Below are positions 1,367-55,032 of a DNA stretch of 64,000 nucleotides, piece after piece. The notes under the pieces were generated by a model, which was given only the letters and a program-made list of their open reading frames with translations, was not told the DNA's origin and did not search any database. The translations under genes and the position numbers were made by a program. How positions within the stretch are numbered: position 1 is the stretch's first letter; each line of letters begins with the position of its first letter. The DNA is from Escherichia coli (GTDB taxonomy: Bacteria > Pseudomonadota > Gammaproteobacteria > Enterobacterales > Enterobacteriaceae): assembly GCF_041248615.1 (NCBI RefSeq), contig NZ_CP158426.1; one strand, given 5' to 3'.

Positions 1367-2284
1367 ATGAACTTCAGACGCCTGAAATACTTCGTAAAAA
1401 TTGTAGATATTGGTAGCCTGACCCAAGCTGCTGAAGTATTGCATATCGCACAACCAGCGCTCAGTCAGCAGGTTGCCACACTGGAAGGTGAGTTAAATCA
1501 ACAACTTTTGATTCGCACAAAACGGGGCGTTACGCCAACTGACGCCGGAAAAATTCTCTATACCCATGCGCGGGCCATTTTACGTCAGTGTGAGCAGGCC
1601 CAACTGGCGGTGCATAACGTTGGTCAGGCATTATCGGGGCAAGTCTCGATTGGCTTTGCGCCAGGAACCGCTGCGTCATCCATCACCATGCCCTTATTAC
1701 AGGCGGTTCGCGCTGAATTCCCGGAGGTCGTTATCTATCTTCATGAAAATAGCGGTGCAGTGCTTAACGAAAAACTGATAAATCACCAACTCGATATGGC
1801 GGTGATTTATGAGCATTCCCCTGTGGCTGGTGTATCCAGTCAGGCTTTACTGAAAGAAGATCTTTTTCTGGTAGGAACCCAAGATTGCCCGGGGCAAAGC
1901 GTTGATGTTAATGCTATTGCGCAAATGAACCTCTTTCTCCCAAGTGATTACAGTGCTATTAGACTTCGTGTTGATGAGGCTTTTTCCCTACGGCGACTCA
2001 CGGCAAAAGTCATTGGTGAAATTGAGTCTATTGCCACGCTTACCGCAGCGATTGCCAGCGGCATGGGCGTTGCAGTATTACCCGAATCGGCCGCGCGTTC
2101 GTTATGTGGCGCAGTAAATGGTTGGATGTCACGCATTACCACTCCTTCCATGAGTCTCTCTTTGTCATTAAATTTACCCGCCAGAGCGAACTTATCGCCA
2201 CAGGCACAGGCAGTGAAAGAGTTGTTAATGTCAGTGATGAGTTCTCCAGTGATGGAAAAAAGGCAGTGGCAATTGGTGAGCTAA
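1367..2284 (+). CDS. nac: LysR-family nitrogen assimilation control regulator Nac
   Basis: ORF 1337..2284; start moved to internal ATG at 1367 giving MNFRRLKYFVKIVDIGSLTQAAEVLHIAQPALSQQV (N-terminal HTH of LysR family); synteny. Confidence 0.9.
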   Translation: MNFRRLKYFVKIVDIGSLTQAAEVLHIAQPALSQQVATLEGELNQQLLIRTKRGVTPTDAGKILYTHARAILRQCEQAQLAVHNVGQALSGQVSIGFAPGTAASSITMPLLQAVRAEFPEVVIYLHENSGAVLNEKLINHQLDMAVIYEHSPVAGVSSQALLKEDLFLVGTQDCPGQSVDVNAIAQMNLFLPSDYSAIRLRVDEAFSLRRLTAKVIGEIESIATLTAAIASGMGVAVLPESAARSLCGAVNGWMSRITTPSMSLSLSLNLPARANLSPQAQAVKELLMSVMSSPVMEKRQWQLVS

Positions 2285-2385
2285 GCGTTATATCGGGATG
2301 GAATAAGATGCGGGTTTTTATTATTTGTTATGCCGGGCATTAGACTTTAACAATAACGGGATATCTGAACTGCCCGGAGTTTACC

Positions 2386-3336
2386 GTGAATTTCCAACAA
2401 CTAAAGATAATCCGCGAGGCTGCACGTCAGGATTACAACCTGACAGAGGTTGCGAATATGCTTTTTACCTCACAGTCAGGCGTCAGCCGTCACATTCGGG
2501 AACTGGAGGATGAACTTGGCATCGAAATATTTGTTCGACGAGGTAAGCGACTGCTGGGCATGACTGAACCGGGCAAAGCATTACTGGTCATTGCAGAACG
2601 CATTCTTAATGAAGCCAGTAATGTTCGTCGGCTTGCAGACCTGTTTACCAACGATACGTCTGGCGTTCTCACTATTGCAACGACGCATACTCAGGCACGT
2701 TATAGCTTGCCTGAGGTCATTAAAGCTTTTCGCGAACTTTTCCCGGAGGTTCGGCTGGAGCTAATCCAGGGTACACCACAGGAAATTGCGACGTTGTTGC
2801 AAAATGGCGAAGCTGATATTGGTATCGCCAGCGAGCGTTTGAGTAATGACCCGCAGCTCGTCGCCTTCCCGTGGTTTCGTTGGCACCATAGTTTGCTTGT
2901 TCCACTCGATCATCCCTTGACGCAAATTACACCGTTGACGCTGGAATCAATAGCGAAGTGGCCGTTAATTACTTACCGACAGGGGATTACGGGGCGCTCA
3001 CGTATTGATGACGCATTTGTCCGCAAAGGTTTGCTGGCAGATATTGTATTAAGTGCGCAGGATTCTGATGTCATTAAAACCTATGTTGCTCTTGGGCTGG
3101 GGATCGGATTAGTTGCCGAACAATCCAGTGGTGAACAAGAGGAAAAGAATTTAATCCGTCTGGATACGAGGCATCTTTTCGATGCTAATACTGTCTGGTT
3201 GGGACTGAAGCGAGGGCAACTTCAACGTAACTATGTCTGGCGCTTTCTGGAACTTTGTAATGCAGGACTGTCAGTTGAGGATATCAAGCGCCAGGTGATG
3301 GAGAATAGTGAAGAGGAAATTGATTATCAGATATAG
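2386..3336 (+). CDS. cbl: LysR-family regulator Cbl (CysB-like)
   Basis: 316-aa ORF with GTG start, LysR HTH (FTSQSGVSRHIRELEDELG) and CysB-like substrate domain; adjacent to nac as in K-12. Confidence 0.9.
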   Translation: MNFQQLKIIREAARQDYNLTEVANMLFTSQSGVSRHIRELEDELGIEIFVRRGKRLLGMTEPGKALLVIAERILNEASNVRRLADLFTNDTSGVLTIATTHTQARYSLPEVIKAFRELFPEVRLELIQGTPQEIATLLQNGEADIGIASERLSNDPQLVAFPWFRWHHSLLVPLDHPLTQITPLTLESIAKWPLITYRQGITGRSRIDDAFVRKGLLADIVLSAQDSDVIKTYVALGLGIGLVAEQSSGEQEEKNLIRLDTRHLFDANTVWLGLKRGQLQRNYVWRFLELCNAGLSVEDIKRQVMENSEEEIDYQI

Positions 3337-3342
3337 CAAAAA

Positions 3343-3366
3343 GCCCGCTATAAAAGCGGGCTTTTC
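3343..3366. terminator. Rho-independent terminator hairpin after cbl (shared with asnU on opposite strand)
   Basis: Stem gcccgct/agcgggc with 5-nt loop followed by TTTT. Confidence 0.5.
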
Positions 3367-3373
3367 AGAAATT

Positions 3374-3449
3374 TGGCTCCTCTGACTGGACTCGAACCAG
3401 TGACATACGGATTAACAGTCCGCCGTTCTACCGACTGAACTACAGAGGA
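3374..3449 (-). tRNA. asnU: tRNA-Asn (GUU anticodon)
   Basis: Identical 76-nt tRNA-Asn sequence on minus strand; located between cbl and yeeO. Confidence 0.95.
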
Positions 3450-3609
3450 ATCGCTGTTGAGGCACATCTTAACGGCGAAAAATCTTTTGTCAAACCCGAT
3501 TTTTAAATTTCCCAACTGTTTGCCGTTTCTATCAACAGTTTGTTGCATTTGCAGACAATTTGTTGGCGAAAATCTTTGCAGCTTTGCTGATTCTCCCTCA
3601 TTATTTGAA

Positions 3610-5097
3610 ATGTGGTTTCACTTTCTGCAATTAAGGTCGGCTTTGAATATCTCCTCTGCTTTACGCCAGGTTGTTCACGGCACTCGCTGGCACGCTAAAC
3701 GCAAGAGCTACAAAGTGTTGTTCTGGCGCGAGATAACCCCGCTTGCTGTTCCTATCTTCATGGAGAACGCCTGTGTCCTGTTGATGGGTGTCCTGAGCAC
3801 TTTTCTGGTCAGCTGGCTGGGAAAAGATGCGATGGCCGGCGTGGGATTGGCGGACAGCTTCAATATGGTCATTATGGCATTTTTTGCGGCTATCGATCTT
3901 GGTACCACTGTCGTTGTGGCATTTAGTCTCGGTAAGCGGGATCGACGACGAGCGAGGGTGGCGACGCGGCAGTCATTGGTGATCATGACGTTGTTTGCCG
4001 TGCTGTTGGCAACGCTTATTCATCATTTTGGCGAACAAATTATTGATTTCGTTGCGGGTGATGCCACGACAGAAGTTAAAGCACTGGCGTTGACTTATCT
4101 GGAGCTGACGGTACTTAGTTATCCAGCAGCTGCCATCACTTTGATTGGTAGCGGGGCACTTCGTGGTGCAGGGAATACGAAAATACCGCTACTGATTAAC
4201 GGTAGCCTGAATATTCTTAATATTATTATTAGCGGCATATTGATTTACGGCCTTTTCTCCTGGCCGGGACTGGGATTTGTCGGGGCTGGGTTGGGGTTAA
4301 CCATTTCTCGTTATATTGGCGCAGTGGCAATTTTGTGGGTGCTGGCGATTGGTTTTAATCCTGCGCTAAGGATTTCGTTAAAGAGCTATTTTAAACCGCT
4401 GAATTTTAGCATTATCTGGGAAGTCATGGGGATTGGTATTCCAGCAAGTGTCGAATCAGTATTATTTACCAGTGGTCGGTTATTAACCCAAATGTTCGTT
4501 GCCGGGATGGGGACCAGTGTTATTGCCGGAAATTTTATCGCGTTTTCAATTGCGGCTCTTATCAACTTACCCGGAAGTGCGCTCGGCTCTGCTTCTACGA
4601 TCATTACAGGCCGAAGGTTGGGAGTAGGGCAGATAGCGCAAGCAGAGATTCAGTTGCGGCATGTGTTCTGGCTGTCCACTCTTGGATTAACGGCCATCGC
4701 CTGGCTAACGGCTCCCTTTGCCGGGGTTATGGCATCGTTTTACACCCAGGATCCACAGGTTAAACATGTCGTTGTGATTCTGATTTGGCTAAATGCTTTA
4801 TTTATGCCTATTTGGTCTGCCTCATGGGTGCTACCCGCTGGATTTAAGGGTGCTCGCGATGCACGTTACGCCATGTGGGTTTCTATGTTGAGCATGTGGG
4901 GTTGCCGGGTTGTAGTCGGTTATGTGCTGGGAATCATGCTTGGCTGGGGTGTGGTTGGTGTCTGGATGGGAATGTTTGCCGACTGGGCTGTGCGGGCCGT
5001 GCTGTTTTACTGGCGAATGGTTACTGGACGTTGGCTGTGGAAATATCCTCGATCTGAGCCGCAAAAGTGTGAAAAAAAGCCAATTGTGTCGGAATAA
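3610..5097 (+). CDS. yeeO: MATE-family efflux transporter YeeO
   Basis: ORF 3457..5097 is highly hydrophobic multi-pass membrane protein; the 5' extension overlaps tRNA asnU, so start placed at ATG 3610 (495 aa, MWFHFLQL...). Confidence 0.85.
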   Translation: MWFHFLQLRSALNISSALRQVVHGTRWHAKRKSYKVLFWREITPLAVPIFMENACVLLMGVLSTFLVSWLGKDAMAGVGLADSFNMVIMAFFAAIDLGTTVVVAFSLGKRDRRRARVATRQSLVIMTLFAVLLATLIHHFGEQIIDFVAGDATTEVKALALTYLELTVLSYPAAAITLIGSGALRGAGNTKIPLLINGSLNILNIIISGILIYGLFSWPGLGFVGAGLGLTISRYIGAVAILWVLAIGFNPALRISLKSYFKPLNFSIIWEVMGIGIPASVESVLFTSGRLLTQMFVAGMGTSVIAGNFIAFSIAALINLPGSALGSASTIITGRRLGVGQIAQAEIQLRHVFWLSTLGLTAIAWLTAPFAGVMASFYTQDPQVKHVVVILIWLNALFMPIWSASWVLPAGFKGARDARYAMWVSMLSMWGCRVVVGYVLGIMLGWGVVGVWMGMFADWAVRAVLFYWRMVTGRWLWKYPRSEPQKCEKKPIVSE

Positions 5098-5197
5098 ACG
5101 ACAAAGTGCAGATTATTTCAGCAAACGATTTCAAATTTAAAAAACAGGCTTTGACATTGTGGATGGGCATCGCTAATATTCGCCTCGTTCTCACGAT

Positions 5198-5273
5198 TCC
5201 TCTGTAGTTCAGTCGGTAGAACGGCGGACTGTTAATCCGTATGTCACTGGTTCGAGTCCAGTCAGAGGAGCCA
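5198..5273 (+). tRNA. asnW: tRNA-Asn (GUU anticodon); integration site of island 1
   Basis: Canonical 76-nt tRNA-Asn sequence on + strand, immediately followed by a P4-type integrase gene. Confidence 0.95.
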
Positions 5274-5434
5274 AATTCAAGTTTTCATGCTTATCTGTAC
5301 GTCTCTATTTGTTTACGATTCAGTAAGTTAGCGTGAAAATCCTTCCCGGTGCGTATCTGGTTTTCTCTCTGTATCGGGATAATTTGGTGGTCAGATCTGG
5401 GGTCAGTTTGGTTCGATTCTGGAGTGACCCCCAA

Positions 5435-6696
5435 ATGTCTTTAAACGATTCTAAAATCCGCAAGTTAAAACCCTCTTCCCGTCTGGTAAAACTCTCCGAC
5501 TCTCACGGTCTGTATCTGCTCGTCAATCCGGGCGGTTCACGCATCTGGTATCTCAAATATCGTTTCAACGGAAAAGAATCCAGAGTCAGTCTTGGCGCAT
5601 ACCCGCTTGTCTCACTGGCAGAAGCCAGGCAACAGCGCGACGGTATCCGTAAGTTACTGGCGCAGAATATCAACCCGGCGCAGCAGCGCATGGCGGAGAA
5701 AGCGGCCTGCTCCCCTGAAAAGTGCTTTAAGGCAGTGGCGCTGGCCTGGCACAAAACCAACAAAAAATGGTCGGCTGATTATGCCGCCCGTATTCTCGCC
5801 AGTATGGAAAACCATATCTTCCCGGCGATTGGTCATCTGCCAGTTGCCACTCTTAAAACGCAGGATTTACTGCTTTGTTGCGGGTTATCGAGGATAAAGG
5901 CTTTCTGGAAGTCGCGTCCCGAACCCGGCAGCAACTCAGCAACATCATGTGCTATGCCGTTCAGCAGGGGCTTACCGAAAGCAATCCGGCGCAGCATCTG
6001 GATGGCGTTGTCGCCTCACCCGTAAAGAATCACTACCCCGCGTTACTGCTGGAGCGGTTGCCCGAACTGCTTGGCCGCATCGGTGACTATCAGCAGGGCC
6101 GGGAGTTAACACGGCTGGCGGTGGTGCTGACGTTGCACCTGTTTATCCGTTCCAGCGAACTGCGTTTCGCCCGCTGGAGCGAGATCGATTTCAGGCACAA
6201 AATCTGGACCATCCCCGCCACCCGCGAGGCAATCGACAAAGTACGGTTTTCGGGGCGTGGCGCAAAAATACGTACCCCGCATATCGTGCCGCTCTCCCGC
6301 CAGGCGATTGCCATTCTGAAACAGATACAGGAGCTTTCCGGCCATCTGGATCTGGTGTTTCCCGGTGATCATAACCCGTACAAGCCAATGAGTGAAAACA
6401 CCACCAACCGGGCGCTACGCCTGATGGGGTATGATACGAAAACTGAAATCTGCGGGCATGGACTCAGGGCGATGGCCTGTAGCGCCCTGGTGGAGTCGGA
6501 GCTGTGGTCACGCGATACGGTGGAGCGGCAAATGAGCCACCAGGAGCGTAACAGCGTGCGGGCAGCCTATGTGCATAAAGCGGAGCATCTGGAGGCCAGA
6601 AAGGCCATGATGCAGTGGTGGTCGGATTATCTGGATGTGTGCCGCGAGGGGTATGTTGCGCCGTACATTTATGCCCGGCAGCATAAGGCAGCCTGA
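5435..6696 (+). pseudogene. P4-family tyrosine integrase, frameshifted near 5872
   Basis: N-terminal part (MSLNDSKIRKLKP...ATLKTQDLL) is in frame 2 (ORF 5333..6025); C-terminal part (LRVIEDKG...HGLRAM...Y) is in frame 1 (ORF 5875..6696); restoring one C at about 5872 (ctgcCtttg) would give a contiguous DLLPLLRVIEDKG integrase of about 420 aa. Confidence 0.8.
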
Positions 6697-8033: not shown

Positions 8034-8650
8034 CTATTTTGCGACATTCATGAATTCAGTCATTCCTCCCTCCAGCGGTAGCCGTACACCTGTTTCACCC
8101 AGCGACCGCGACCGTCGCCATGACCCAGATCCGTCGCCGTCAGCGCCAGTGACTCCTTTTCGCTGAATCCCTGCGCCAGTATCCAGGACTGTCGTATAAC
8201 GGGGACGCCCGCCTTTGGTGCCAAATACCACTTTTAGCCGGGTTTCACCGCGGGAAATGGCTTTCAGCCACGTTTTCAGCGACTGTGAACTCTGTACCGC
8301 CTCCTGCGAACGCAGCCCCATCAGCCGCGCAATCTCCAGGCTGCTGCCAGCCCTGCGTCCTGAGTACGGGCTTTCTCCATCACCTGCCTGCGTCCAGCCT
8401 GTCTCAGCACGGCCCGCAACGCTGCCATTTCGTTTTGCAACGTTCGTAAACCAATATCCAGCTCCAGCCGTTCCTCAATGTAGCATTCGATATGGCGAAC
8501 CTTGATCTGCTCCACCCGCTGGATCTGGATATTCAGCGCCCGTAAATGTTCACTGAACCGTTTTGTAATATGGATACGGTCATTCACCGTTTTGAAGCTG
8601 CCGCCCGCTTTCTTCGCCAGCGCCTTCATTTCACTGCTTAATTTACTCAT
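8034..8650 (-). pseudogene. Degenerate tyrosine-recombinase (integrase) remnant
   Basis: ORF 8321..8650 resembles an integrase N-terminal SAM-like domain; the adjacent out-of-frame ORF 8034..8321 has a GTKGGRPRYTTVLD segment resembling the TGKGGK.R..P recombinase box; no intact catalytic C-terminus. Confidence 0.4.
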
Positions 8651-32389: not shown

Positions 32390-33442
32390 ATGGGAATTAG
32401 TGTTCGAGTCTTGCAAGCAAATCATGGTGATTGTTTCTTAGTTAGTTATAAGAGCTCAGATAGTGTTTACAACTTGCTAATTGATGGTGGTAATAGCGCC
32501 ACATTTATGTTTGGGGCTCAAGGGCGCTACAGTGGTGAGCTTAAATGTGTACTCGATGATTTGAAAAAAGAAGGTCAGAAAATTGACTTGGTTATCTTAA
32601 CCCATATAGATGATGATCATATCGGTGGTTTGCTTAGGGCTTTTGAAACACCAGGTTATCTATGCCAAATGGCTTCTTCTATCTGGTTTAATTCTTCAAG
32701 ATTTATCACCAAACATTTTAAGGTTGATGAAATTTCAGACAATGATGTCTGTCTTCAAAGTAACTCAACGCAGACAAGTGCTAGGCAAGGGAAGAAACTG
32801 GAAAACTTACTTGATGAAATCAATTGCGAACGGCAACCCATAGTTATTGCGGGGCAGAAGTTTACAAGGGGTCCGTTCACATTCACGATCTTATCCCCTG
32901 AAGAAGATAATCTACGTAGCCTTCTTCATAAGTGGCCAGATGAGCCAGATCCGGTTACGACATCCGGTGCTTCAAGGGATTATGGAATGAAATTTGAGGA
33001 TATTTTGTCTAATGATAAATTCCAGAGTGATCAATCTGTTTATAATGGTAGCTCAATTGCTTTCATCCTTGAAGCTGATGGTAAGGCTATGCTCTTTTTG
33101 GGCGATTCACATGATGAAAATATTGTCCGTAATTTACGATCTCTTGGTTTTAATGAAGGTAACAAGCTCAAACTCGACCTCGTGAAAATTTCTCATCATG
33201 GTAGCCAGTATAATACTAGCCCTGAATTTTTGTCGCTCATAGATGCGCAAAACTTCATTATATCCACTAATGGGAGTAAGCACGGACTTCCTGATAAGAG
33301 AACTATTGCACGGATTTTATCTTCAGGAGAAGGCAAAATCGGCTTCAATTATTCGCACATTATCCAGGAGATGCTTCACGAAAATGAGGTTCCATTGTAC
33401 TCTTCTCGCCTGGTAGCATTAAATGGAGAAATTAGGCTATAA
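32390..33442 (+). CDS. MBL-fold metallo-hydrolase (first gene of candidate defence operon)
   Basis: Motifs HGDCFLV...IDGG, LVILTHIDDDHIGG and KISHHGS are typical of the metallo-beta-lactamase fold; AGGAAA RBS before ATG 32390; stop overlaps next gene. Confidence 0.7.
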   Translation: MGISVRVLQANHGDCFLVSYKSSDSVYNLLIDGGNSATFMFGAQGRYSGELKCVLDDLKKEGQKIDLVILTHIDDDHIGGLLRAFETPGYLCQMASSIWFNSSRFITKHFKVDEISDNDVCLQSNSTQTSARQGKKLENLLDEINCERQPIVIAGQKFTRGPFTFTILSPEEDNLRSLLHKWPDEPDPVTTSGASRDYGMKFEDILSNDKFQSDQSVYNGSSIAFILEADGKAMLFLGDSHDENIVRNLRSLGFNEGNKLKLDLVKISHHGSQYNTSPEFLSLIDAQNFIISTNGSKHGLPDKRTIARILSSGEGKIGFNYSHIIQEMLHENEVPLYSSRLVALNGEIRL

Positions 33443-34727
33443 AATGACCGCTTCAAATTTGATGGCTTCTAACGCAGTGATCGTGAACGAGGGCAGTGGT
33501 GTTCTTGTTAATGCGATGACTCAAGATTATTCATACGTACTCACAGCAAAACATGTGTTAGCGAAATCAGGTAGTCAAAATATCGTTACTAATCAATATG
33601 GTAACAGTCTTAGAGTGCTTGATGTATTGGTGGGTCAGGAAGAGCATTGCGACTGTGCTGTAATCAAAATTGAATATGTACCAACTGTTGCTCAGCAGTC
33701 CTTCCCTGCAATAGCATTACCCAATTCGGCTTTGCTAAAGTTTGTTGGTTTTCCGGGAACCGAGAGACTAAGCGCTACCCCGCTGAAAATCTATGATGGG
33801 CATGTAACAGATGTAAGGGAGGGGCTGATTAGCTTCACGATAGAAGGCAGTCCCTCAAAAACCGCAATCGATGGAATGTCTGGCGGTGGAATGTATTACA
33901 TAGTTAATGAACATCCCCTCCTTGTTGGTGTAGAATTTGGGATGGACAGTATTCGTCAAGATCTACAATATGGACGTATACAATGTAAAAGTTTAATTGT
34001 TTTTGAAGAGATAATTAATTTAAACAGTGCTGCTCCAATGGTTCCCGCTTATTTGGAGTGTTTTTCACGCTTAAAAGAATATATCTTCGATTTTAATGTT
34101 GTTGATAAAAATAGAGTTCTGAATCTGAAAAACGCATTAAATATTTTTGCAGATGAACTTATAGACAAAGGTATGCCACCACCATTTGAATTAATGTCCA
34201 AATACAAAACTGATTTGTTAGTAGGTCCATATCAAGTTGACGATGTTAAAAATAAAGAATTATGGGTTGCATATTTTGAATTTCTGATAATTTGCGCAAT
34301 TCTTGATAATGTAAGTATTGCCAATAGTTCTTATATAGAAAGTTTAGAGCGGCGTAGGAGAATTCTTTATACTCCGGATGGAAGTAATTGGGTCGGAAAG
34401 CTTGATGTAATCTTAAAAGTTGCTCGAAAGTTATTAGATAAAGATGGCATAGTAATTGTGGCATCTCCAGAAAATGGAGCCGAATTATTACCGGATGATT
34501 TTGAAGTCGATAGGGTTATAAGGAATATTGCGCGAATCGCTAATTCAGGTCCACTTGCTCCTATCGATCAAGTTGAAAAAGAGATGTATAAGAGTTTTGT
34601 ATTAACGCATCTTGAAGGGCTGAGAAAAAAATGTGTTATAAACAAAGAGAGAATGTATGCAGAAGTTGAAGCTGGCTTAGACCAACTTCAGACGTTTAAG
34701 GAAAGCTTTAATGAATTTATTAAATAA
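33423..34727 (+). CDS. Trypsin-like (S1-type) serine protease with C-terminal domain of unknown function (LmuA-like effector?)
   Basis: Candidate catalytic triad in order His (VLTAKHV), Asp (DCAVIKIE), Ser (DGMSGGGMYY); about 230 further residues without recognised motif; start may be 33423 or 33444; overlaps both neighbours. Confidence 0.7.
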   Translation: MEKLGYKMTASNLMASNAVIVNEGSGVLVNAMTQDYSYVLTAKHVLAKSGSQNIVTNQYGNSLRVLDVLVGQEEHCDCAVIKIEYVPTVAQQSFPAIALPNSALLKFVGFPGTERLSATPLKIYDGHVTDVREGLISFTIEGSPSKTAIDGMSGGGMYYIVNEHPLLVGVEFGMDSIRQDLQYGRIQCKSLIVFEEIINLNSAAPMVPAYLECFSRLKEYIFDFNVVDKNRVLNLKNALNIFADELIDKGMPPPFELMSKYKTDLLVGPYQVDDVKNKELWVAYFEFLIICAILDNVSIANSSYIESLERRRRILYTPDGSNWVGKLDVILKVARKLLDKDGIVIVASPENGAELLPDDFEVDRVIRNIARIANSGPLAPIDQVEKEMYKSFVLTHLEGLRKKCVINKERMYAEVEAGLDQLQTFKESFNEFIK

Positions 34728-35262
34728 AGAATTTGATTTGGAATTTCTTAAATCTAGATTTTCTGATGCAGATTTCTATTTTTTTGTTTCTAATGATGAC
34801 TCATCTTATATTTCATGCGTAGCATGCTATTGTGAGAGCGCTAATTACGTGGTTGCGAATTGGACAGCGATTCAGAATTATTTATCTGCTTACTACCAAC
34901 CGAAGGATGAATTAGCTCTTTGGAATATATATTTAGTTTTCTTTTGTTCCGAAAAATTACCGATTTGGGATAAGTACCTTATAGATAATGATAAGTATTC
35001 TGTCAGAAAATTAATTATTGACGGGTTAACTACTCTGCCAAGTATTTCCGAAACTGTAACTTTTCTGAACAATCATCTGCTAGGCGCAGACCTAGAATTA
35101 ACTGAAATAGAGGAGAAGAAGGAGATAGAGTTATCATTAATTGAGTATATAAGTGGAACTCCTTTAGATTCAAAGGTTGAGTCGAGAGATGAGCGTATGA
35201 GCAGAATTGATAAAATTATTAATCTAGTGAGTTCAAATAAAAATGAAAATAAAAAAAGTTGA
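34711..35262 (+). CDS. Small protein (183 aa) of unknown function, translationally coupled (middle component?)
   Basis: ORF overlaps upstream gene by 17 nt and downstream gene by 20 nt; AT-rich; no recognised motif. Confidence 0.5.
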   Translation: MNLLNKEFDLEFLKSRFSDADFYFFVSNDDSSYISCVACYCESANYVVANWTAIQNYLSAYYQPKDELALWNIYLVFFCSEKLPIWDKYLIDNDKYSVRKLIIDGLTTLPSISETVTFLNNHLLGADLELTEIEEKKEIELSLIEYISGTPLDSKVESRDERMSRIDKIINLVSSNKNENKKS

Positions 35263-38200
35263 AATAGAAGGCTTTCGAGCATACAGATTCAAGGAAGATG
35301 GTACTTTCGATTTTACAAATAAAGATGATACGCCATCCAATTTTGTAGCGATCTATGCACCCAATGGCTTTGGAAAAAGTTCATTCTATGATGCGGTTGA
35401 ATGGGCTATTACTCATAATTTAGATAGATTTGCGGGTGAATATAATAAAAAAAATTATGAGCAAGCTGCCAGGAGCACGAAAGAGGACGGTGTTGCACAA
35501 AAAATACTACGTAATAAAGATGTACCAGACAATATTCCTACTCGTGTAACAGTTTTCACTACTTTACCAACTCCATTCGAACAAAGTTTAGGAACAGTTC
35601 GTTCTGATTCTAGAGATATAAGAATCGGCGAGAATAAAAATAAAATCAATGGCTATTTTAGAAAAGTGGTTCTTAGTCAAGATGAAATAGACCGTTTTTT
35701 AAAAGAAGCAAAGCCGCAAGATCGTTATAAGATGTTTATGGAGAGTTTTGGAGGTGAATGGGAAAAGGCGAGACAAGAGCTAACTATACTATTGAATGAC
35801 AATAAGGCGGTTTTGTTAAATCTCGAAAAAAACAAAAATGAACTTCAGGAACAACTAGATCAGCCTGTTGATGCGTCAACATTCATACAATTTAATAAAA
35901 TAGCATCTGAACTTGTAGCAGAAGGTGAAAGTTTACCATTAGTAGATGAAACAACTATAGTTAATACACAGCATGAGCTTTTGGAAAAAATAATCACAAG
36001 AAGTCACGAAATAAATTTTTCCTTAAACAAGAAAAAAATATTGAGAGATTCGATTTCTGAGTATATTTTAAAATTTCCTGATATCAGTTTTCGTACAACC
36101 CAGATTATCGAGAAAAAGAATAGACTAGAAAAAATAAATAAAGGGATAGAAGATGTCGGTCGTTATAAGACATTTCAGTCTACTCTTGAAAAACTGACTA
36201 TCGAAAAGAAAAAGATAAGTCAGAGCTTAAATTTTATAGAAGAATTAGATGGTTTATCCCAAGAGTTTTTAAGCTTGGAATTTAACTTGGAATCAGCTCG
36301 AAAGAAACATAGAGAGATTTCATATAATTATGAAAATGAAAAAACTCTCCTTGATAATTTATTCCAAACAAGAAACCAAAATGATGCTGATTTATCTTCA
36401 ATTGACAAGCGATGCTTATCTATACGTTCTACGTTAGAAAACGCTACGGTTACTTATTCTAATATATCTAATATACAAAATAAAATTTTAAATATAGTTT
36501 CTACGCAAACAGAATTAGAGCACAAACTTAATCAAGTTAGATCCGAATACCAAAAAAACAAATCCGAATTAAACAAAGTATCAGATTTAACAATAACCGC
36601 CAAATCATTACTTTCATCAGACTTAAGTCTAATTGATTTATCTTCAGATTTATTAAAAGAACTAAACAACTTATCGCAAGAACTAAATATATTGGTCCTA
36701 CATGATCAATCAATTCATAACACACAAGAATCTCTTTCTGCACAAATGGGAGTTCACGAACGTCTAATTGCATCGGGCCTTGAGTACTTAAGTTTATGGC
36801 CGACTAATATATGTCCTTTATGTCACAAGCCGCATGACTCTGAGTCCTCTCTTAGAGAACAAGTAACAAATACTGACGTAATATCCATGCTTAGTAAAGA
36901 GAATGCAGCTAAGCTCGAGATATCCTCAAAACGGCGGTCAGAGTTAAATGGCAAGATAGAATCCATCGTACAGAAAGCCCTTGAAATTAAAATGAGTAAA
37001 CTTGAGGTATTAAGTAAAAAGGTCAATCAACAAGGAAATGAGATACATCGAGAAGAACAGCACTATACAGCTCTTTTAGCAGAAAAACAGTCTGTCCAAA
37101 ATCAGTTAAACGAGTTGCAGAAGGCTGTAGCTGGACTAACTAAAGATGAATTATTAGCTCGCTTAGATGCTGAACTTAAAGAATTAGAGGCCAAGAAAAA
37201 TGAAGTGATAAAAAACAAGCTGACCTTGACGAAAAATATTAACGTTAAAAGAACGTTGATTACAGAGTTAAGTGGGGCGATCAATTTACTTAATACGCAA
37301 ATTCATGAAATGATGTCATCATCTAACTATTTAAAAACAAAAGCTTACTCTGAAGAAAATGGCTTGTCATCGGAGTTTTTGAAAGAACATTATGATGATA
37401 AACGCCATTTTTACCTTAAAAATATAAATGGACTCAATTTTGAGATTAATAATATTACCAGCCAATTAAATGATCTTCAGAAAGCTATGATAGCCGATGA
37501 AATGTGGCTGGATTATGAAGAAATGATTTCTGAAAAAGAGAATTTCGAGGATTATATTTCTAAATCAGAAGCGGTTTTACAATCTTATTCATCATTATTA
37601 AAGCAGCATTTTGAACTACCAAAATATGAATCTTTAGTTGAATTGAAAGATTTCCTGATAAGCTCACTTGATAAAGAAACTAGGCTTTATAATGGTCTAG
37701 AGGAACGGCTTGGAAAATATAATTTATTATCAGAACTTTTGAAAACAGCAGAGTCGTTTGTAAAAAGTATTAAGTTGCAGAATGATATTAATGAAACCTT
37801 AGGTCTTATAGAAATAAGAAAAGAAGTTGATTTAGCTCTGACTAAGGAACGAAATCAAGTAATAGAGGAACTTAGAAACTTGATAAAATCTTTCTTTTAT
37901 GAGGAACTCATTAATTCTATTTATAAGAGAATAGATCCACATCCATCACTTAAGAAAGTGGTGTTTCGCCCAGATTTTGACTCATCAGATAAACCTGGTC
38001 TTAATATAGTTGTCAGTGATGAAAAAGGTGATATGGTATCTCCAATATTATTCTTTAGTGCAGCGCAATTAAATATTCTAAGCCTTAGTGTCTTTTTAGC
38101 AAGTGCTTTGCATGCAAAAGATGATAATGGAAATGTAATTGATGTGATTATGATTGATGATCCAATTCAATCAATGGATTCAATTAATATCCTATCCACA

Positions 38201-38380
38201 ATTGATCTTCTTAGAAGTATTACCGTTAGATTCAACAAACAAATAATAATATCAACACATGACGACAATTTCTTTGGCTTGCTCCAACGTAAAATCCCTT
38301 CGGAAATATTGGGTGCCAAGTTTCTTAAATTGGAGAAATTTGGGGTTGTAGTGCCTGTTGATGATTTAAATAATACATGA
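35243..38380 (+). CDS. Rad50/SbcC/SMC-like ABC ATPase with central CxxC zinc hook (LmuB-like?)
   Basis: N-terminal Walker A (VAIYAPNGFGKSSFYD), Q-loop (VLSQDEI), long coiled-coil middle with CPLC at residues 524-527 of 1045 (nt 36812..36823), C-terminal signature-like FSAAQ, Walker B VIMIDDP, D-loop SMD and H-loop ISTHD. Confidence 0.8.
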   Translation: MKIKKVEIEGFRAYRFKEDGTFDFTNKDDTPSNFVAIYAPNGFGKSSFYDAVEWAITHNLDRFAGEYNKKNYEQAARSTKEDGVAQKILRNKDVPDNIPTRVTVFTTLPTPFEQSLGTVRSDSRDIRIGENKNKINGYFRKVVLSQDEIDRFLKEAKPQDRYKMFMESFGGEWEKARQELTILLNDNKAVLLNLEKNKNELQEQLDQPVDASTFIQFNKIASELVAEGESLPLVDETTIVNTQHELLEKIITRSHEINFSLNKKKILRDSISEYILKFPDISFRTTQIIEKKNRLEKINKGIEDVGRYKTFQSTLEKLTIEKKKISQSLNFIEELDGLSQEFLSLEFNLESARKKHREISYNYENEKTLLDNLFQTRNQNDADLSSIDKRCLSIRSTLENATVTYSNISNIQNKILNIVSTQTELEHKLNQVRSEYQKNKSELNKVSDLTITAKSLLSSDLSLIDLSSDLLKELNNLSQELNILVLHDQSIHNTQESLSAQMGVHERLIASGLEYLSLWPTNICPLCHKPHDSESSLREQVTNTDVISMLSKENAAKLEISSKRRSELNGKIESIVQKALEIKMSKLEVLSKKVNQQGNEIHREEQHYTALLAEKQSVQNQLNELQKAVAGLTKDELLARLDAELKELEAKKNEVIKNKLTLTKNINVKRTLITELSGAINLLNTQIHEMMSSSNYLKTKAYSEENGLSSEFLKEHYDDKRHFYLKNINGLNFEINNITSQLNDLQKAMIADEMWLDYEEMISEKENFEDYISKSEAVLQSYSSLLKQHFELPKYESLVELKDFLISSLDKETRLYNGLEERLGKYNLLSELLKTAESFVKSIKLQNDINETLGLIEIRKEVDLALTKERNQVIEELRNLIKSFFYEELINSIYKRIDPHPSLKKVVFRPDFDSSDKPGLNIVVSDEKGDMVSPILFFSAAQLNILSLSVFLASALHAKDDNGNVIDVIMIDDPIQSMDSINILSTIDLLRSITVRFNKQIIISTHDDNFFGLLQRKIPSEILGAKFLKLEKFGVVVPVDDLNNT

Positions 38381-43592: not shown

Positions 43593-44133
43593 ATCTTAAG
43601 AAGCTGCAGTTGAGTCATAGCCAGCGATCAAAATTGAGAAGACAAAACCGGGGAGAGGTGCCCGCAGTTTCTGCCCCAGCTCCCATCTTCAGGAAGATGT
43701 GTTTCAGGAATGCATTCGTGATGCTGGGGATAGCGGCAAGACGATTTTCTCATCGGGTAACTCTGCGGTATCGGAACAGTTGACGACGGCAGGGTGGTGA
43801 ATGGGAACCTCAGGATGAAGCGCTCGGGCAAGAGGGATGGACTGTGCTGAAGAGAACACTGACAGAACGAGCATGATGCTTGCAAAAAGGGGACTCTGGA
43901 TATTCATTGTTTATCTCCTGATGATATTCATCGCTCCAGAGAATACGCTTGCCACTCTTTTTATTTGTTTTCCTGAATTAAAAATGCCCGGTTTTATGTG
44001 GTTCTTCCGTAAACGTTATTACATTAATTAACATCTAGTTTCTATCTCCGAAATGAGGTAAAAAAATAATTGTCGTGGTTTTTATCAAACAAATTTACCG
44101 GCAGCTCAGATCCGAACTAATACCTGGAAATTC

Positions 44134-44182
44134 AAACCCCAAACCCCAAACCCCAAACCCCAAACACCAAACCCCAAACACC
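44134..44182. repeat. Heptanucleotide microsatellite (AAACCCC/AAACACC) x7
   Basis: Direct reading: aaacccc x4, aaacacc, aaacccc, aaacacc; opposite strand is G-rich (GGGGTTT)n. Confidence 0.95.
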
Positions 44183-44412
44183 ATTTCACCGCTGGCGTGT
44201 AAGGGGCTCTATATCTGTTTATTCAGGGATAGTTTTTTCTCCCGTGTGATTTCCGTTCATGTATCTGCTTCCGGTTAATCGTTTCCCAGCACAACCCGTC
44301 CCGCAAGGGTAAATGGCACGCCTGCTGCGCCCTTGCGGGATGGAACGATGCCGGGAAAGCGAACCGTCAGGCGATACGAAGACGAAAATCACACCACTGA
44401 CGGAGAAAAAAA

Positions 44413-45357
44413 ATGACTATGTCCCTGCATACCAAGATAAGTGCCCCTAACACGACAGCGGCGACCAGCGTATCCTCGCTGGATCTGTCAGGCTCCTCAA
44501 AAACGAAATGTTCAACAGCCAGAACCGATATTTATCAGACTGTTACCGACAGCATAATTGCGGCGCTGGAAACCGGAGTAAAACCTTGGGTGTGTCCTTG
44601 GCAGCGAGCTCCCGGTATGTCCGGTTTACCGTCCAATTACGCCACTGGTAAGGCTTACAGCGGAATGAATATCATGTTGCTTTGGTGCAGCGCGTCAAAA
44701 CAGGGATTCTGTGATTCACGCTGGATGACCTACAAACAGGCAAAAGCGGTAGGTGGGCAGGTGCGCAAGGGAGAACACGGCACTACCGCGATTTTCTATA
44801 CCACGCTGGAAAAGGAAAATGATAACGGAGAAACTGACTATATTCCTATGCTGAAAGCATTCACTGTGTTTAATGTTGAACAAATTGACGGTTTACTCCT
44901 GAGTGATGATGCCGTTTTTCCGGCAGAGATCTTTGAGCCATTACCACGTGCAGAAGCACTTTTTCGTAGTAGCGGTGCAACCATTATTGAAAAAGGACAG
45001 AATGCTTTTTTTACACCATCAACCGACGAAATTCGCTTACCTGAACGGTATCTTTTTATTGATGCTGCTAATTTCTACGCAACCGGCCTGCATGAGCTCG
45101 TTCACTGGAGTGGGGCAAAAAGTCGGCTGAACCGTGAAATGAAAGGGAAATTTGGCAGCGAGGGGTATGCGTTTGAAGAGTTGATCGCTGAGCTGGGGAG
45201 CGCATTCCTGATGGCGGATCTGGGGATAGTTGGAGAAGTTCTGCATGACAGTTATATCGCTTCCTGGCTTAAAGCACTGAGGAATGATAAACGCTATATT
45301 TTCAAGGCCGCCAGCGCGGCATCGAAAGCACATCGCTATTTGATGGATAAAAGCTGA
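44413..45357 (+). CDS. ArdC-like anti-restriction protein (N-terminal ssDNA-binding domain plus HExxH metalloprotease-like domain)
   Basis: 314-aa ORF; HELVHW motif in the C-terminal half; architecture and size fit ArdC/DUF1738 proteins of conjugative elements. Confidence 0.6.
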   Translation: MTMSLHTKISAPNTTAATSVSSLDLSGSSKTKCSTARTDIYQTVTDSIIAALETGVKPWVCPWQRAPGMSGLPSNYATGKAYSGMNIMLLWCSASKQGFCDSRWMTYKQAKAVGGQVRKGEHGTTAIFYTTLEKENDNGETDYIPMLKAFTVFNVEQIDGLLLSDDAVFPAEIFEPLPRAEALFRSSGATIIEKGQNAFFTPSTDEIRLPERYLFIDAANFYATGLHELVHWSGAKSRLNREMKGKFGSEGYAFEELIAELGSAFLMADLGIVGEVLHDSYIASWLKALRNDKRYIFKAASAASKAHRYLMDKS

Positions 45358-50342: not shown

Positions 50343-50514
50343 TACGTATTCCTCGTTGATTGGTGTTAACTCTCTTTCTCGGGCCTGAATTCGCCTGTTA
50401 TATGGGCGACCAGGATAGCCTGATAGACTGGCCCCATGAATCTCCAGACAACCAATATCACTTAAATAAGTGATAGTCTTAATACTAGTTTTTAGACTAG
50501 TCATTGGAGAGCAG

Positions 50515-50880
50515 ATGATTGATGTCTTAGGACCGGAGAAACGCAGACGGCGTACTACACAGGAAAAGATCGCTATTGTTCAGCAGAGTTTTGAACCGGG
50601 AATGAAGGTCTCCCTTGTTGCCCGGCAACACGGTGTGGCAGCCAGCCAGTTATTTCTCTGGCGCAAGCAATACCAGGAGGGAAGTCTTACTGCTGTGGCC
50701 GCAGGAGAGCAGGTCGTTCCTGCCTCTGAACTTGCTGCTGCCATGAAGCAGATTAAAGAACTCCAGCGCCTGCTCGGCAAAAAAACGATGGAAAATGAAC
50801 TCCTTAAAGAAGCCGTTGAATACGGGCGTGCAAAAAAGTGGATAGCGCACGCGCCCTTATTGCCCGGGGATGGGGAGTAA
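50515..50880 (+). CDS. insC: IS2 transposase OrfA (InsC)
   Basis: [53 protein letters not shown]... matches recalled IS2 InsC. Confidence 0.85.
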
Positions 50881-51743
50881 GCTTAGTCAGCCGTTGTCTC
50901 CGGGTGTCGCGTGCGCAGTTGCACGTAATTCTCAGACGAACCGATGACTGGAAAGATGGTCGCCGCAGCCGTCACTCAGATGATACGGATGTGCTTCTCC
51001 GTATACACCATGTTATCGGAGAGCTGCCCACGTATGGTTATCGTCGGGTATGGGCGCTGCTTCGCAGACAGGCCGAACTTGATGGTACGCCTGCGATCAA
51101 TGCCAAACGTGTTTACCGGATCATGCGCCAGAATGCGCTGTTGCTTGAGCGAAAAACCGCTGTACCGCCATCGAAACGGGCACATACTGGCAAAGTGGCC
51201 GTGAAAGAAAGCAATCAACGATGGTGCTCTGACGGGTTCGAGTTCCGCTGTGATAACGGAGAAAAACTGCGAGTCACGTTCGCGCTGGACTGCTGTGACC
51301 GTGAGGCACTGCACTGGGCAGTCACTACGGGCGGCTTCGACAGTGAAACAGTACAGGACGTCATGCTGGGAGCGGTGGAACGCCGCTTCGGCAACGAGCT
51401 TCCGGCGTCTCCAGTAGAGTGGCTGACGGATAATGGTTCATGCTACCGGGCTAATGAAACACGGCAGTTTGCCCGGATATTGGGGCTTGAACCGAAGAAC
51501 ACGGCGGTGCGGAGTCCGGAGAGTAACGGCATAGCAGAGAGCTTCGTGAAAACGATAAAGCGTGACTACATCAGTATCATGCCTAAACCAGACGGGTTAA
51601 CGGCAGCAAAGAACCTTGCAGAGGCGTTCGAGCATTATAACGAATGGCATCCGCATAGTGCACTGGGTTATCGCTCGCCACGGGAATATCTGCGGCAGCA
51701 GGCCAGTAATGGGTTAAGTGATAACAGGTGTCTGGAAATATAG
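50838..51743 (+). CDS. insD: IS2 transposase OrfB (InsD, DDE integrase domain)
   Basis: 301-aa ORF overlapping orfA in another frame, as in IS3-family OrfAB arrangement; DDE-type catalytic region. Confidence 0.85.
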
Positions 51744-52342: not shown

Positions 52343-53098
52343 TTAAATTTGCATTGAGGTAGCGATATCGAGACGTTGCAGTTCGTCAATCGTGTAGATG
52401 CGGAACACATTCCTGTGGCGGGTTTCCAGTGGGATGTGTTGATGATTCACGATGACGTACTGGATGCTGTCAAACAGCCGTTCAAGACCGAGTTTTTTTT
52501 GCGGGTCTGGCACAATATAAAAAACGTAGATCCAGTCTTTACGCGTTCGGGCCAGTAAATGACTGGCTATGATCGACTGGTAACGGGCTTTGGTTTTCAG
52601 ATGGCGCTCGGTCTCGATGGCGATCACCGTGCCGCTGGGGAGGGCAATTAGCCCGTCCGGGCGGTGACTGACCTGATAACGACTCAGGAAAGTTGTGCGA
52701 TCGCCATGTATCCAGCCGCATGCGCCTTTTTTTTCGAGGATGATCCGCGCCATCTGATTATCAAGGTGATGTTCCAGCGTCCAGCCTGTGAGTTTTGAAG
52801 GCTCAAACCGGGCCGGGAAAATTTCATCATCAGGCTGTATTACGACCGCCAGCCCGTCGTTGGTTATTCCCCACAATGAAATTTTCTTCGTACGTGATAC
52901 CAGGACGTGTTTTTGTATTAACCCCATTCCCTCAACTTTTGAAAGCAGGGAATACAGTGATTTATGATCCCTGAAGCCGAACAGCAGCATCAGTGTTGTA
53001 AAATCACTGTACGTTTCTTCTTTCAGGAAATTCAGCAGTCGTATTATCTTCTCGCGATGTCGGGTCTGGCGCTCGCGGTATGCGGTGATAAGCATCAT
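52343..53098 (-). CDS. Hypothetical wHTH-containing protein adjacent to T4CP gene (relaxosome/replication-relaxation-like?)
   Basis: 251-aa ORF immediately downstream of the coupling protein gene; N-terminal segment looks like a winged helix; possible PD-(D/E)xK-like RPDG...IAIETERHLK; family not confidently recognised. Confidence 0.35.
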   Translation of the reverse strand: MMLITAYRERQTRHREKIIRLLNFLKEETYSDFTTLMLLFGFRDHKSLYSLLSKVEGMGLIQKHVLVSRTKKISLWGITNDGLAVVIQPDDEIFPARFEPSKLTGWTLEHHLDNQMARIILEKKGACGWIHGDRTTFLSRYQVSHRPDGLIALPSGTVIAIETERHLKTKARYQSIIASHLLARTRKDWIYVFYIVPDPQKKLGLERLFDSIQYVIVNHQHIPLETRHRNVFRIYTIDELQRLDIATSMQI

Positions 53099-53106: not shown

Positions 53107-55032
53107 CTAAAAGTTCAGTAACGAGGGATGATCCTCTTTACCTGCACCTGCACCTGCACCTGCACCTGCACTTGTTGTTGTGTGTTTCTCGTCCGGCTTG
53201 TCAAAAAAGAGATCGGGTTGTGTTGTCGTGATAACTGATGTTGATGACGGTCCGGATGACATTTCTTCCTCGTCAAAATTCAGGGCAATGTTGACTCTTG
53301 CGGCGGTGGCGGCAACAGCGGGCGATACGGCACAGATCGCCAGTTCCCTTTTTTTAACCCTGATGGGAGAAATTAGTGAAGCAGAGGGGAGGGCTTTGGT
53401 GGTGAATATAAAACTGACAAAATCAGGCAGGTTCAGCACCATATTACTGTCGATAAAGAAACGCTCGGCCTGCCTGATGGTGCGTTCACTATCGATAGTC
53501 TCTGTCAGCACCGCATCTGTTTTGGCTTTGCGGACTTCGTCATCGACTAATATGGTGCCTGACATTCTTGCCACCCAGTCAGCGGTATCAGGGTCCATGA
53601 CACGATAAACCAGCTTGAATTTGGCATTCTCCACAACTGCACCCACCACGGCATCGCTTTTCAAATCCGCCGGGCAATCTTTTAAATCGGCAATGGATTG
53701 GTGGTCCATAATAATGTGTACACCTTTATCCCGTGCCGCACCTAAGCCTTCCAGCGCAGGCTTGGATAAATGGTATTTCAGTTCGGAAAGGTAAATAGCA
53801 ATAGGGCGGGGTGTGTGGTTTACCCGATCGCGCCTTTCTGCCAGCTGGTACAGGCGAACCAGCAGCATGCGCTGAGCGGTAATAATTTTGCTGTTGCGCA
53901 TCGAGCCAATCACATAGCAGCAACCACCGTTATCAAATATTGTATTGAGGGAAAATCCTGCCGGTGCATTGATGGCATTGAGTAAGGCCAGCTCCTCAAT
54001 TTTCCCGAAAAAGGCTTTTATCTTATCAGCGATACTTTGGACGTATTCCCCGTTATACACATCCCGAATGGTTGAGGTCGTATTACGGGCGACAAATTGT
54101 GCAGCTATTCGGGCTGCTTTGCGATCGTCAATGCGATAAAAGTCAGACTCTTGTCCTTTCTCTGCCAGACTGAAACCCGCGACAAAAAGTTCTTCCAGTT
54201 CATCAGCGGTGATATCGTTAATCAGGTTTAGCTGGTATGCCTGTTTCCTCAGGTCAATTAGGGCAAAGGATTTCCCTGCATCCTCGCAGGCTTTCCGGTA
54301 AAGGTGTGGGGCCCACTCATCATCTTTGGGGTCCATAACAAATACGCCTTCACCGGCCAAAATACTCTGATAAAGTAATATCCCGGTGGCCACCCCTTTA
54401 CCGGCCCCCGTGGTCCCGATGATATCGGCATGTTGTTTTTGCCAGTCTTTTAACGGCAGGTACATCGGCTGTTTCATTCTGTTCATGCCGATAAAAATAC
54501 CTTTACTCAGGTTAATATAATCCTCCGGGTTATAGTGCAATGTTTCCGGTAGCAGCGATTTCACCGTTCGGACATCAGTACGTAATTCCCTTTCCAGAGT
54601 GGTTTTTCTGACGAACCGACTTTTTACTTTATCGAGTTCAGGTGTTAACACCCTGCGCAGAAGAATATGGAAAACAAAACCGGCTGCGGTAGAGGTAATC
54701 AGTATCAGCCAGGAGAGGACAGTATTGCTGGTGGCTATCTTTATTCGGTATATCCATTGAAATAATTCGTTCACCACGGGCGCTATTGTGCCAAACAAAA
54801 AGCACAGTATGGAAAAAACTATCACCAGCTTTTTCCATAAAGGGGCTTTGAGTCGTTCATCGCTTTTCATCGACGCGAAGAATGGCATGGTCAGCCCTGA
54901 GAATAGCGCCAAAATAGGTTGATGCTGGTGCATAAAAACGAGCAGTCCCAGCATGCCGTCCACTATCGGTGATAGTGAAACGATCAGCTTATTTAACACC
55001 ATAATGCTTCCTTTATCGGCCATTCGCCCCAC
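53107..55032 (-). CDS. virD4: Type IV coupling protein (VirD4/TraG-like ATPase)
   Basis: N-terminal hydrophobic segments, Walker A IIGTTGAGKGV, DPK motif (VFVMDPKDDEW); C-terminal (Ala-Gly)5 tail. Confidence 0.75.
   Translation of the reverse strand: MGRMADKGSIMVLNKLIVSLSPIVDGMLGLLVFMHQHQPILALFSGLTMPFFASMKSDERLKAPLWKKLVIVFSILCFLFGTIAPVVNELFQWIYRIKIATSNTVLSWLILITSTAAGFVFHILLRRVLTPELDKVKSRFVRKTTLERELRTDVRTVKSLLPETLHYNPEDYINLSKGIFIGMNRMKQPMYLPLKDWQKQHADIIGTTGAGKGVATGILLYQSILAGEGVFVMDPKDDEWAPHLYRKACEDAGKSFALIDLRKQAYQLNLINDITADELEELFVAGFSLAEKGQESDFYRIDDRKAARIAAQFVARNTTSTIRDVYNGEYVQSIADKIKAFFGKIEELALLNAINAPAGFSLNTIFDNGGCCYVIGSMRNSKIITAQRMLLVRLYQLAERRDRVNHTPRPIAIYLSELKYHLSKPALEGLGAARDKGVHIIMDHQSIADLKDCPADLKSDAVVGAVVENAKFKLVYRVMDPDTADWVARMSGTILVDDEVRKAKTDAVLTETIDSERTIRQAERFFIDSNMVLNLPDFVSFIFTTKALPSASLISPIRVKKRELAICAVSPAVAATAARVNIALNFDEEEMSSGPSSTSVITTTQPDLFFDKPDEKHTTTSAGAGAGAGAGKEDHPSLLNF
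53141..53170. repeat. Hexanucleotide repeat (CCTGCA)x5 inside the 3' end of the T4CP gene
   Basis: cctgca repeated 5 times in frame, encoding AGAGAGAGAG at the protein C-terminus. Confidence 0.95.

Follow-up and report, generated by a model that had tools for sequence, protein, structure and literature searches.

The coupling protein TraD of F-like conjugation systems carries an unstructured C-terminal extension of ~200 residues, in which a QQP repeat of differing length, 5 residues in F and 23 in R1, lies just upstream of the TraM-interaction domain (PMC3245843). The TraD tail is flexible and binds TraM tetramers weakly, through avidity (PMC3159463), and in R388 the TrwB tail recruits TrwA (PMC12857230). 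The original prediction for the locus described here had stated that the tails of type IV coupling proteins (T4CPs) contact relaxosome components in some systems, and the pairs TraD–TraM (PMC3159463) and TrwB–TrwA (PMC12857230) bear this out. The MOBC relaxase family is related to PD-(D/E)xK restriction endonucleases (PMC12857230), and MobB of CloDF13 serves both as the T4CP and as a relaxosome accessory protein (PMC7431656). Elements of the ICEKp type are laid out as xis, a virB-type T4SS, oriT and mobBC (PMC6202445), and mobB is required for transfer of ICEKp1 (PMC6761156; PMC6202445). Here we report on a stretch of 64,000 nucleotides of Escherichia coli DNA (hereafter the window), in which a MobB-type coupling-protein gene carries an in-frame hexanucleotide array that varies in copy number between close relatives.

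The coupling-protein gene and the neighbouring relaxase gene

The 64-kb window matched the E. coli NRZ14408 chromosome (NZ_LT599825.1) with 100% identity, and the T4CP sits on an ICEKp/ICEEc1-like chromosomal element of this strain; the plasmid collection that was searched contained no close relatives of the element. Genes for VirB11 through VirB1, a TraR/DksA gene and an AlpA-type gene are located upstream of the T4CP gene, and variable cargo is located downstream. The two genes of immediate concern are the following:

53107–55002, minus strand: gene for a type IV coupling protein (T4CP) of the MobB type, 631 aa when counted from the RefSeq ATG (WP_192459696.1)
52343–53098, minus strand: mobC, MOBC-type (PD-(D/E)xK) relaxase gene (NCBIfam NF041423)

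An upstream GTG at 55032 offers an alternative T4CP start and would give 641 aa. The T4CP matched the Pfam families TrwB_AAD_bind (PF10412; 31.3 bits, cut-off 20.5) and T4SS-DNA_transf (PF02534; 25.4 bits, cut-off 20.1), and WP_192459696.1 is labelled by RefSeq as 'type IV secretory system conjugative DNA transfer family protein'. Residues 196–203 form a Walker A motif (GTTGAGKG), and N-terminal hydrophobic 19-residue windows are present at about residues 5–25, 51–81 and 95–116; a canonical Walker B was not clearly identified in the protein, as has also been reported of ICEKp1 MobB (PMC6761156). Judged from its profile matches, the window protein is a T4CP of the VirD4/TraD/TrwB superfamily. 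It resembles TraD in architecture, by analogy, and is by the available models not a member of the TraD family, because the NCBIfam TraD models TIGR03743 (65 bits, cut-off 366) and TIGR03754 (28 bits, cut-off 648) scored far below their cut-offs. PDB sequence searches with the T4CP and with the family profile returned only weak matches (DotL, E 0.18 with the profile). The protein shared 77–84% identity with ~120 Enterobacterales cluster representatives, among them K. pneumoniae ICE proteins and representatives of very abundant K. pneumoniae clusters. An AF2 model of the full-length T4CP from a 91-sequence alignment was poor everywhere (mean pLDDT 45), such that body and tail were not separable, because all sequences in the alignment were at least 77% identical to the query.

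The T4CP stop codon is followed after 8 nt by the mobC start, with a ribosome-binding site (RBS), AAGGGG, in between. The mobC product matched NCBIfam NF041423 (MobC_subf) over its full length (362.8 bits, cut-off 200), and its AF2 model had pLDDT >90 over residues 1–250, with a winged-helix domain followed by a nuclease fold for which the best PDB match was EndoMS (E 4.9e-4). Residues P147, D148, E162, E164 and K168 were near-invariant. On these profile and model results, the mobC product fits the MOBC relaxase family. Synteny of the T4CP and MobC genes was present in more than 60 loci, extending down to 39% T4CP identity (Hahella, Bacterioplanes).

An in-frame array between conserved islands of the tail

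The array lies close to the 3′ end of the T4CP gene:

53140–53171, minus strand: tandem array of hexanucleotides, (GCAGGT)5 together with GT from the AGT codon before it, encoding Ala612–Gly621, (Ala-Gly)5

On the plus strand, positions 53140–53171 read A(CCTGCA)5C. Tandem Repeats Finder (TRF) reported 53140–53171 with a period of 6, 5.3 copies, 100% matches and a score of 64, the count of 5.3 copies arising because GT microhomology flanks the 6-mer. The units in codon phase are GCA GGT, running on the minus strand from 53169 down to 53140; the array is in frame with the ORF 53107–55002(−), and the unit length is a multiple of three. An in-frame hexanucleotide repeat giving (Ala-Gly)5 in a VirD4-like protein was what the original prediction had proposed, and the sequence, TRF, Pfam and RefSeq all agree with it. 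The span given there for five CCTGCA units, 53141–53170, denotes the same array and is one base off the codon phase GCA GGT. The repeat had also been placed at the C-terminus; it does lie within the C-terminal tail, but not at its very end, as the ten residues KEDHPSLLNF follow (Ala-Gly)5 before the stop codon.

The 26-base period-6 self-match run was the only run of at least 10 in the window. In shuffled sequence the longest such run had a mean of 7.7 and a maximum of 10 (100 shuffles), and the analytic expectation was ~1e-11. The five GCAGGT units are identical, synonymous sites included, and therefore bear the signature of recent duplication and not of selection on the peptide. The GCAGGT repeat on its own was predicted to form a hairpin that gains stability as units are added (−8.5 kcal/mol for five units with RNA parameters), and such hairpin formation would be compatible with slippage. 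Two further reading frames across this region were rejected as spurious: a plus-strand ORF (53180–53608), which overlaps the well-supported T4CP gene and is itself without support, and an ORF in an alternative minus-strand frame encoding (QV)n (53115–53276), which likewise overlaps the T4CP gene without support.

The part of the protein that contains the array is organized as follows:

53110–53361, minus strand: C-terminal tail, residues 548–631, marked by a drop in conservation and by low complexity
53275–53283, minus strand: conserved island 1, L574-N-F576 (L-D/N-F in the family), with L574 and F576 invariant in 91 sequences
53203–53217, minus strand: conserved island 2, P596-D-L-F-F600, with F599 invariant and P596, L598 and F600 at least 95% conserved
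53110–53124, minus strand: terminal motif S627-L-L-N-F631-COOH (S-x-L-D/N-F in the family), with L629 invariant, S627 at 96% and F631 at 97%

The 91-sequence family alignment revealed a body that is highly conserved to about residue 547, after which only the three short islands are conserved. Small, charged and polar residues (A/G/S/T/P/E/D/K/Q/R/N) make up 75% of the tail, compared with 63% of the body, and no secondary structure was predicted beyond residue 568. We also modelled the tail with AF2 when fused to MobC through a GS linker of 30 residues, using a 128-row alignment of 14 paired rows (query included) and 114 diverse MobC homologues; beside a confidently folded MobC, the tail was coil with pLDDT 37–51, the tail columns being shallow. 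From its composition, conservation and low pLDDT, the tail is apparently disordered.

As an insertion, the AG tract falls in the block of the tail with the lowest conservation and the most gaps, between the LFF island and the terminal S-x-L-x-F; residues 601–620 had a mean top-residue frequency of 0.32 and 40% gaps in the 91-sequence alignment. Nearly all tails of the 120 cluster representatives end in L[DN]F. In more distant homologues the tails are longer, acidic and of low complexity, and mostly end in LDF, LNF, INL or FDDE, and the homologue from Vibrio scophthalmi (L077) contains an in-frame tandem of its own, (CCAGAAGAA)8, encoding (PEE)8. Expendable, repeat-prone linkers therefore recur in these tails. 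Natural frameshift variants lacking everything past the LFF island were present on several contigs (P0124, P0128).

Copy number among relatives and the probable origin of the array

To compare repeat number among homologues, as the original prediction had suggested, we read 40 of the 200 sequences in the 90%-identity protein cluster that holds the window protein, the 4-unit proteins and the protein of E. coli A38. GCAGGT copy number is polymorphic within this one cluster, with 1, 3, 4, 5 and 6 units overall, and hence not invariant. The existence of these alleles in close relatives is in keeping with the further expectation that slippage in 6-bp units changes the length of the tail without a frameshift. 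No allele of 2 units or of more than 6 units was seen in this thin sample (40/200 cluster members read).

The four-unit allele occurred on 8 contigs among the cluster members read, and the five-unit allele on 9; five units are carried by NRZ14408 and GCA_018052305.1. One unit was found in C. freundii, C. gillenii, K. aerogenes, Klebsiella sp., K. oxytoca and E. coli A38, three units in K. grimontii (P0130, read at the protein level), and six units on the metagenome contig OBJT01002147.1. An E. coli variant encoding VG-AG-AG has the DNA sequence GTAGGT GCAGGT GCAGGT. Among E. coli complete genomes, only four other records reached 93% identity to the query over the tail region; the alleles of E. 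coli 2018-06-4CC (two assemblies) and YF-1 have 4 units, and the T4CP of E. coli A38 (~95% identity) has one. A metagenome scan with the shared upstream flank gave 22 matches, 19 of which were unrelated sequences; the 3 true loci carried a six-unit allele, a one-unit allele and a GCA GAT (Ala-Asp) allele (L019). A single Ala-Asp is the state of the wider family at the repeat position, with tails such as …TTTPNADKEENPSLLDF, and (AG) of at least 2 units was absent from all 119 of the more distant cluster representatives.

Over 41.5 kb, 54 substitutions and 4 indels separate the copies of the element with 5 and 4 units (99.87% identical; two 4-unit E. coli strains), and one of the 4 indels is the 6-bp GCAGGT unit itself. 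Within 4946 bp around the gene, the comparison of 5 with 4 units gave 2–3 mismatches and a single 6-bp gap. As a crude comparison of rates between two ICE copies, this amounts to one indel in a 30-bp tract, as against 1.3 substitutions per kb. Assemblies can miscount tandem repeats, and a low-complexity run may arise by chance; we nevertheless regard an artefact of sequencing or assembly, or a chance run, as having next to no prospect of accounting for the array, considering the chance expectation of ~1e-11, the presence of the 5-unit allele in independent assemblies, the recovery of the 4-unit allele by different projects on at least 6 contigs, and the fact that near-identical stretches of DNA differ here by exact multiples of 6 bp.

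Both the 4-unit and the 5-unit alleles recur in independent assemblies, and each is therefore stably inherited. On the alleles compared, the GCAGGT tract is mutable on evolutionary timescales and not hypermutable. The frame and the terminal motif are kept in every repeat-number allele observed, and a phase-variable on/off contingency locus was rejected, as the 6-bp unit lies inside the ORF and all alleles are in frame. Expanded alleles were found on three flanking haplotypes in at least two genera, and recurrent expansion or selection could account for this distribution.

We consider it likely that the array is a slippage-generated coding microsatellite that serves as a flexible spacer of tolerated length. 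Its history would begin with a GAT to GGT change, by which AGT GCA GAT becomes AGT GCA GGT and the Ala-Asp of the family becomes a single Ala-Gly in this lineage. AGT GCA GGT would give GTGCAGGT, in which the 6-mer is flanked by GT microhomology; slipped-strand mispairing could then duplicate the unit and subsequently extend or contract the array in 6-bp steps, always keeping the frame. The array would accordingly be young and may still be changing by slippage.

A second repeat in the window is located at 44133–44183, ~230 bp upstream of ardC, where a CAAAC(C/A)C heptamer array has 7 units. The 99.87%-identical ICE of 2018-06-4CC has 12 units at this site; with the flanks conserved, K. spallanzanii also has 12, a metagenome relative has 9 and Cedecea davisae has 2. 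The copy range of this CAAACCC array (2–12) is wider than that of the Ala-Gly repeat. Since it lies outside coding sequence, with a unit length not divisible by three, the array could shift promoter/operator spacing at ardC, and it may merit closer attention than the Ala-Gly repeat.

Possible role of the tail and comparison with known systems

As a flexible spacer, the AG units would add 2–10 extra small flexible residues to a disordered linker that joins the ATPase body and the P-x-LFF island to the C-terminal S-x-L-x-F, and would leave the islands untouched. The conserved islands are plausible contact peptides, and the terminal motif is likely to dock on a partner within the relaxosome or the secretion machine. 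Insert length would then alter the reach of the terminal motif, and not its identity. Repeat length is probably near-neutral, because the insert sits where the tail already tolerates substitutions and indels across the family.

We also considered functional tuning, in which repeat number would set the reach or avidity of S-x-L-x-F for a relaxosome or T4SS partner and slippage would modulate transfer efficiency or partner specificity as a rheostat, not as an on/off switch. In F-like systems, T4CP tails determine both the specificity for substrates and the efficiency, and a variable repeat occupies the equivalent place (PMC3245843; PMC3159463); in the prototype MobB/MobC module, that of CloDF13, MobB has a second function as relaxosome accessory factor (PMC7431656); and the expanded alleles occur on three flank haplotypes in at least two genera. 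However, the AG insert lies in a segment that is already free to vary in sequence and length across the family, the length change totals only 2–10 residues in a linker of ~25–35 residues, natural frameshift variants without the post-LFF region exist (P0124, P0128), and AF2 did not dock the tail on MobC. On balance we regard tuning as unlikely. A heritable form of the rheostat, in which a longer linker changes the reach of the tails of a hexameric T4CP, or their multivalent binding, towards the MobC relaxosome or some other partner, so that ICE subpopulations differ in transfer frequency or partner specificity, is in our judgement distinctly improbable. In the AF2 fusion of MobC, linker and tail, the tail was undocked and the LFF island and PSLLNF had pLDDT <50 (monomeric MobC, shallow tail columns, judged on pLDDT). 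A tail–MobC contact is unsupported by the fusion model; this is not a strong negative, because the model comprised only a MobC monomer, the tail columns were shallow and docking was judged on pLDDT.

The proximity of the repeat to mobC raises a possible role at the RNA level, in which repeat-dependent mRNA structure would adjust the translation of MobC relative to that of the T4CP. The repeat lies ~40 nt upstream of the mobC RBS, and the T4CP stop codon and the mobC start are 8 nt apart. In folding of a ~200-nt fragment, the probability of the RBS being unpaired was 0.40, 0.25 and then 0.15, such that predicted RBS/AUG accessibility was lower with at least 2 units than with 0–1. But the predicted accessibility was flat from 2 to 8 units, and the observed alleles of 3–6 units would therefore not differ. 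Moreover, ribosomes finishing the T4CP ORF must unwind the region, as expected under translational coupling, and the folding used an arbitrary fragment without covariation support. An RNA-level role is thus very hard to credit, and a slippage-generated spacer remains the reading that we prefer.

Taken alone, the Ala-Gly repeat matters little, being a lineage-specific coding microsatellite in a change-tolerant linker. As a marker it is convenient and of high resolution, suited to following one ICE lineage through E. coli, Klebsiella and Citrobacter, and it marks out the architecture of the MobB-type tail, with three short conserved hydrophobic/acidic islands and expendable linkers between them. 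The natural series of 1–6 units, together with the truncated variants, offers ready-made constructs for finding the partner of S-x-L-x-F in MOBC-type conjugation, which is poorly studied. If repeat length does affect transfer, the locus would be a simple example of tunable conjugation in relatives of elements that spread yersiniabactin and colibactin.

The array shares with in-frame VNTRs and coding microsatellites its perfect head-to-tail units, its multiple-of-three unit length and a copy number that is polymorphic in near-identical backgrounds. It is, however, no frameshifting on/off switch and does not lie in a surface-exposed antigen; it is also short (at most 6 units seen) and stably inherited within lineages.

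In its gene content, the window element resembles ICEKp1/ICEKp and ICEEc1-type elements, with which it has in common xis/AlpA, a virB-type T4SS, a non-coding gap, the T4CP, MobC and variable cargo; unlike in ICEKp/ICEEc1-type elements, no ybt locus was seen next to the T4SS. MobB proteins of the ICEKp type share the conserved islands and the terminal L[DN]F with the window T4CP, whereas ICEKp/ICEEc1-type MobB lacks the AG repeat and has in its place an acidic proline-rich stretch such as KPKPDDEEHLSPLDF. CloDF13, of the MOBC family, likewise pairs a T4CP gene with a gene for a MobC PD-(D/E)xK-type relaxase, and the C-terminus of its MobB, as read from a published primer, is also acidic/aromatic, …GDDDFAGLY (PMC7431656). 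Unlike the window element, CloDF13 is a small mobilisable plasmid without a T4SS of its own, and the likeness drawn here is one of module.

The window T4CP differs from F-like TraD in belonging to another T4CP subfamily, in its unit (Ala-Gly, as against Gln-Gln-Pro in TraD) and in the length of its extension (~85 residues, as against ~200). The window element has no TraM homologue, and the adjoining relaxase is MOBC-type, whereas TraD systems have MOBF. Like TraD of F, R1 and R100, the window T4CP has a C-terminal extension, here apparently unstructured, with an in-frame tandem repeat; in both, the repeat differs in length from one close relative to another and is directly followed by a conserved acidic/aromatic peptide at the terminus. 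In the lineage studied here, (AG)1–6 precedes the conserved S-x-L-[DN]-F-COOH by ten residues, which is the TraD-like layout of a repeat followed by a terminal motif. A variable repeat in a T4CP tail has already been described for F-like TraD, and the array reported here is a new example in the MobB/ICEKp-type subfamily.

Variation in the coupling-protein tail

Natural tail-less variants of the MobB-type type IV coupling protein (T4CP) were found among its relatives. Two proteins that cluster with the window T4CP at 90% identity (P0124 and P0128) end in '…DLFFDIAGRETHNNKCR*'; they are found in C. freundii and on seven contigs, one of them from a metagenome-assembled genome labelled Acinetobacter. 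Judged from the protein sequences, this ending would fit a +1 frameshift immediately C-terminal to the LFF island, the conserved P596-D-L-F-F600 of the tail, with a stop within the GCAGGTAAA sequence. A homologue from Vibrio scophthalmi (locus L077), 56% identical to the window T4CP, carries a different repeat in its tail:

L077 3478-3549: (CCAGAAGAA)8 in frame, a tandem that codes for (PEE)8 within the C-terminal tail.

This independent tandem shows that the gain of coding microsatellites is a recurrent event in the tails of this T4CP family.

A heptamer array upstream of ardC

A second polymorphic repeat precedes the ArdC gene (+ strand, about 44413-45357) by about 230 bp:

44133-44183, + strand: heptanucleotide tandem CAAAC(C/A)C, 7 units.

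The flanks of the array are conserved and its copy number is highly polymorphic, ranging from 2 to 12 units across the compared loci: 2 in Cedecea davisae (L040), 9 in a metagenome locus (L020), and 12 both in K. spallanzanii (L050) and in E. coli 2018-06-4CC (L102 19460-19543), the ICE of which is 99.87% identical to that of the window. Because the array is non-coding and its unit length is not a multiple of 3, changes in copy number could alter the spacing of the ardC promoter or operator.

Cargo, insertions and the tRNA-Asn region

The window also contains the following features:

About 32390-38380, + strand: ICE cargo, including a ComEC/Rec2-family gene and then an 'ABC-three component system' gene set (RefSeq names).
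50470-51743: IS3-family element between hchA and mobC, two ORFs with a programmed frameshift.
965-6696 and 8060-8650: E. coli tRNA-Asn cluster, left part of the window.

The 'ABC-three component system' set includes a large AAA ATPase and looks like a defence-type module; in strain 2018-06-4CC, ISApl1 interrupts this region. The IS3-family insertion was found only in NRZ14408; 2018-06-4CC and YF-1 lack it, although their ICEs are nearly identical in other respects. In the tRNA-Asn cluster, three tRNA-Asn genes are interspersed with ldtA, nac, cbl, and yeeO, and beyond the third lie integrase genes with frameshifts, together with an RHS element. These are probably what is left of a different island at this hotspot of integration.

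Predicted domains of MobC

52343-53098, - strand: MobC.

A Pfam search with MobC returned no matching model. The AF2 model was confident (pLDDT above 90) and predicts an N-terminal winged-helix domain with PadR/MarR-like PDB matches. Among 128 homologues, P147, D148, E162, E164, and K168 are near-invariant. The C-terminal domain is modelled as a PD-(D/E)xK-type nuclease, matching EndoMS (PDB 5gke, E 4.9e-4).
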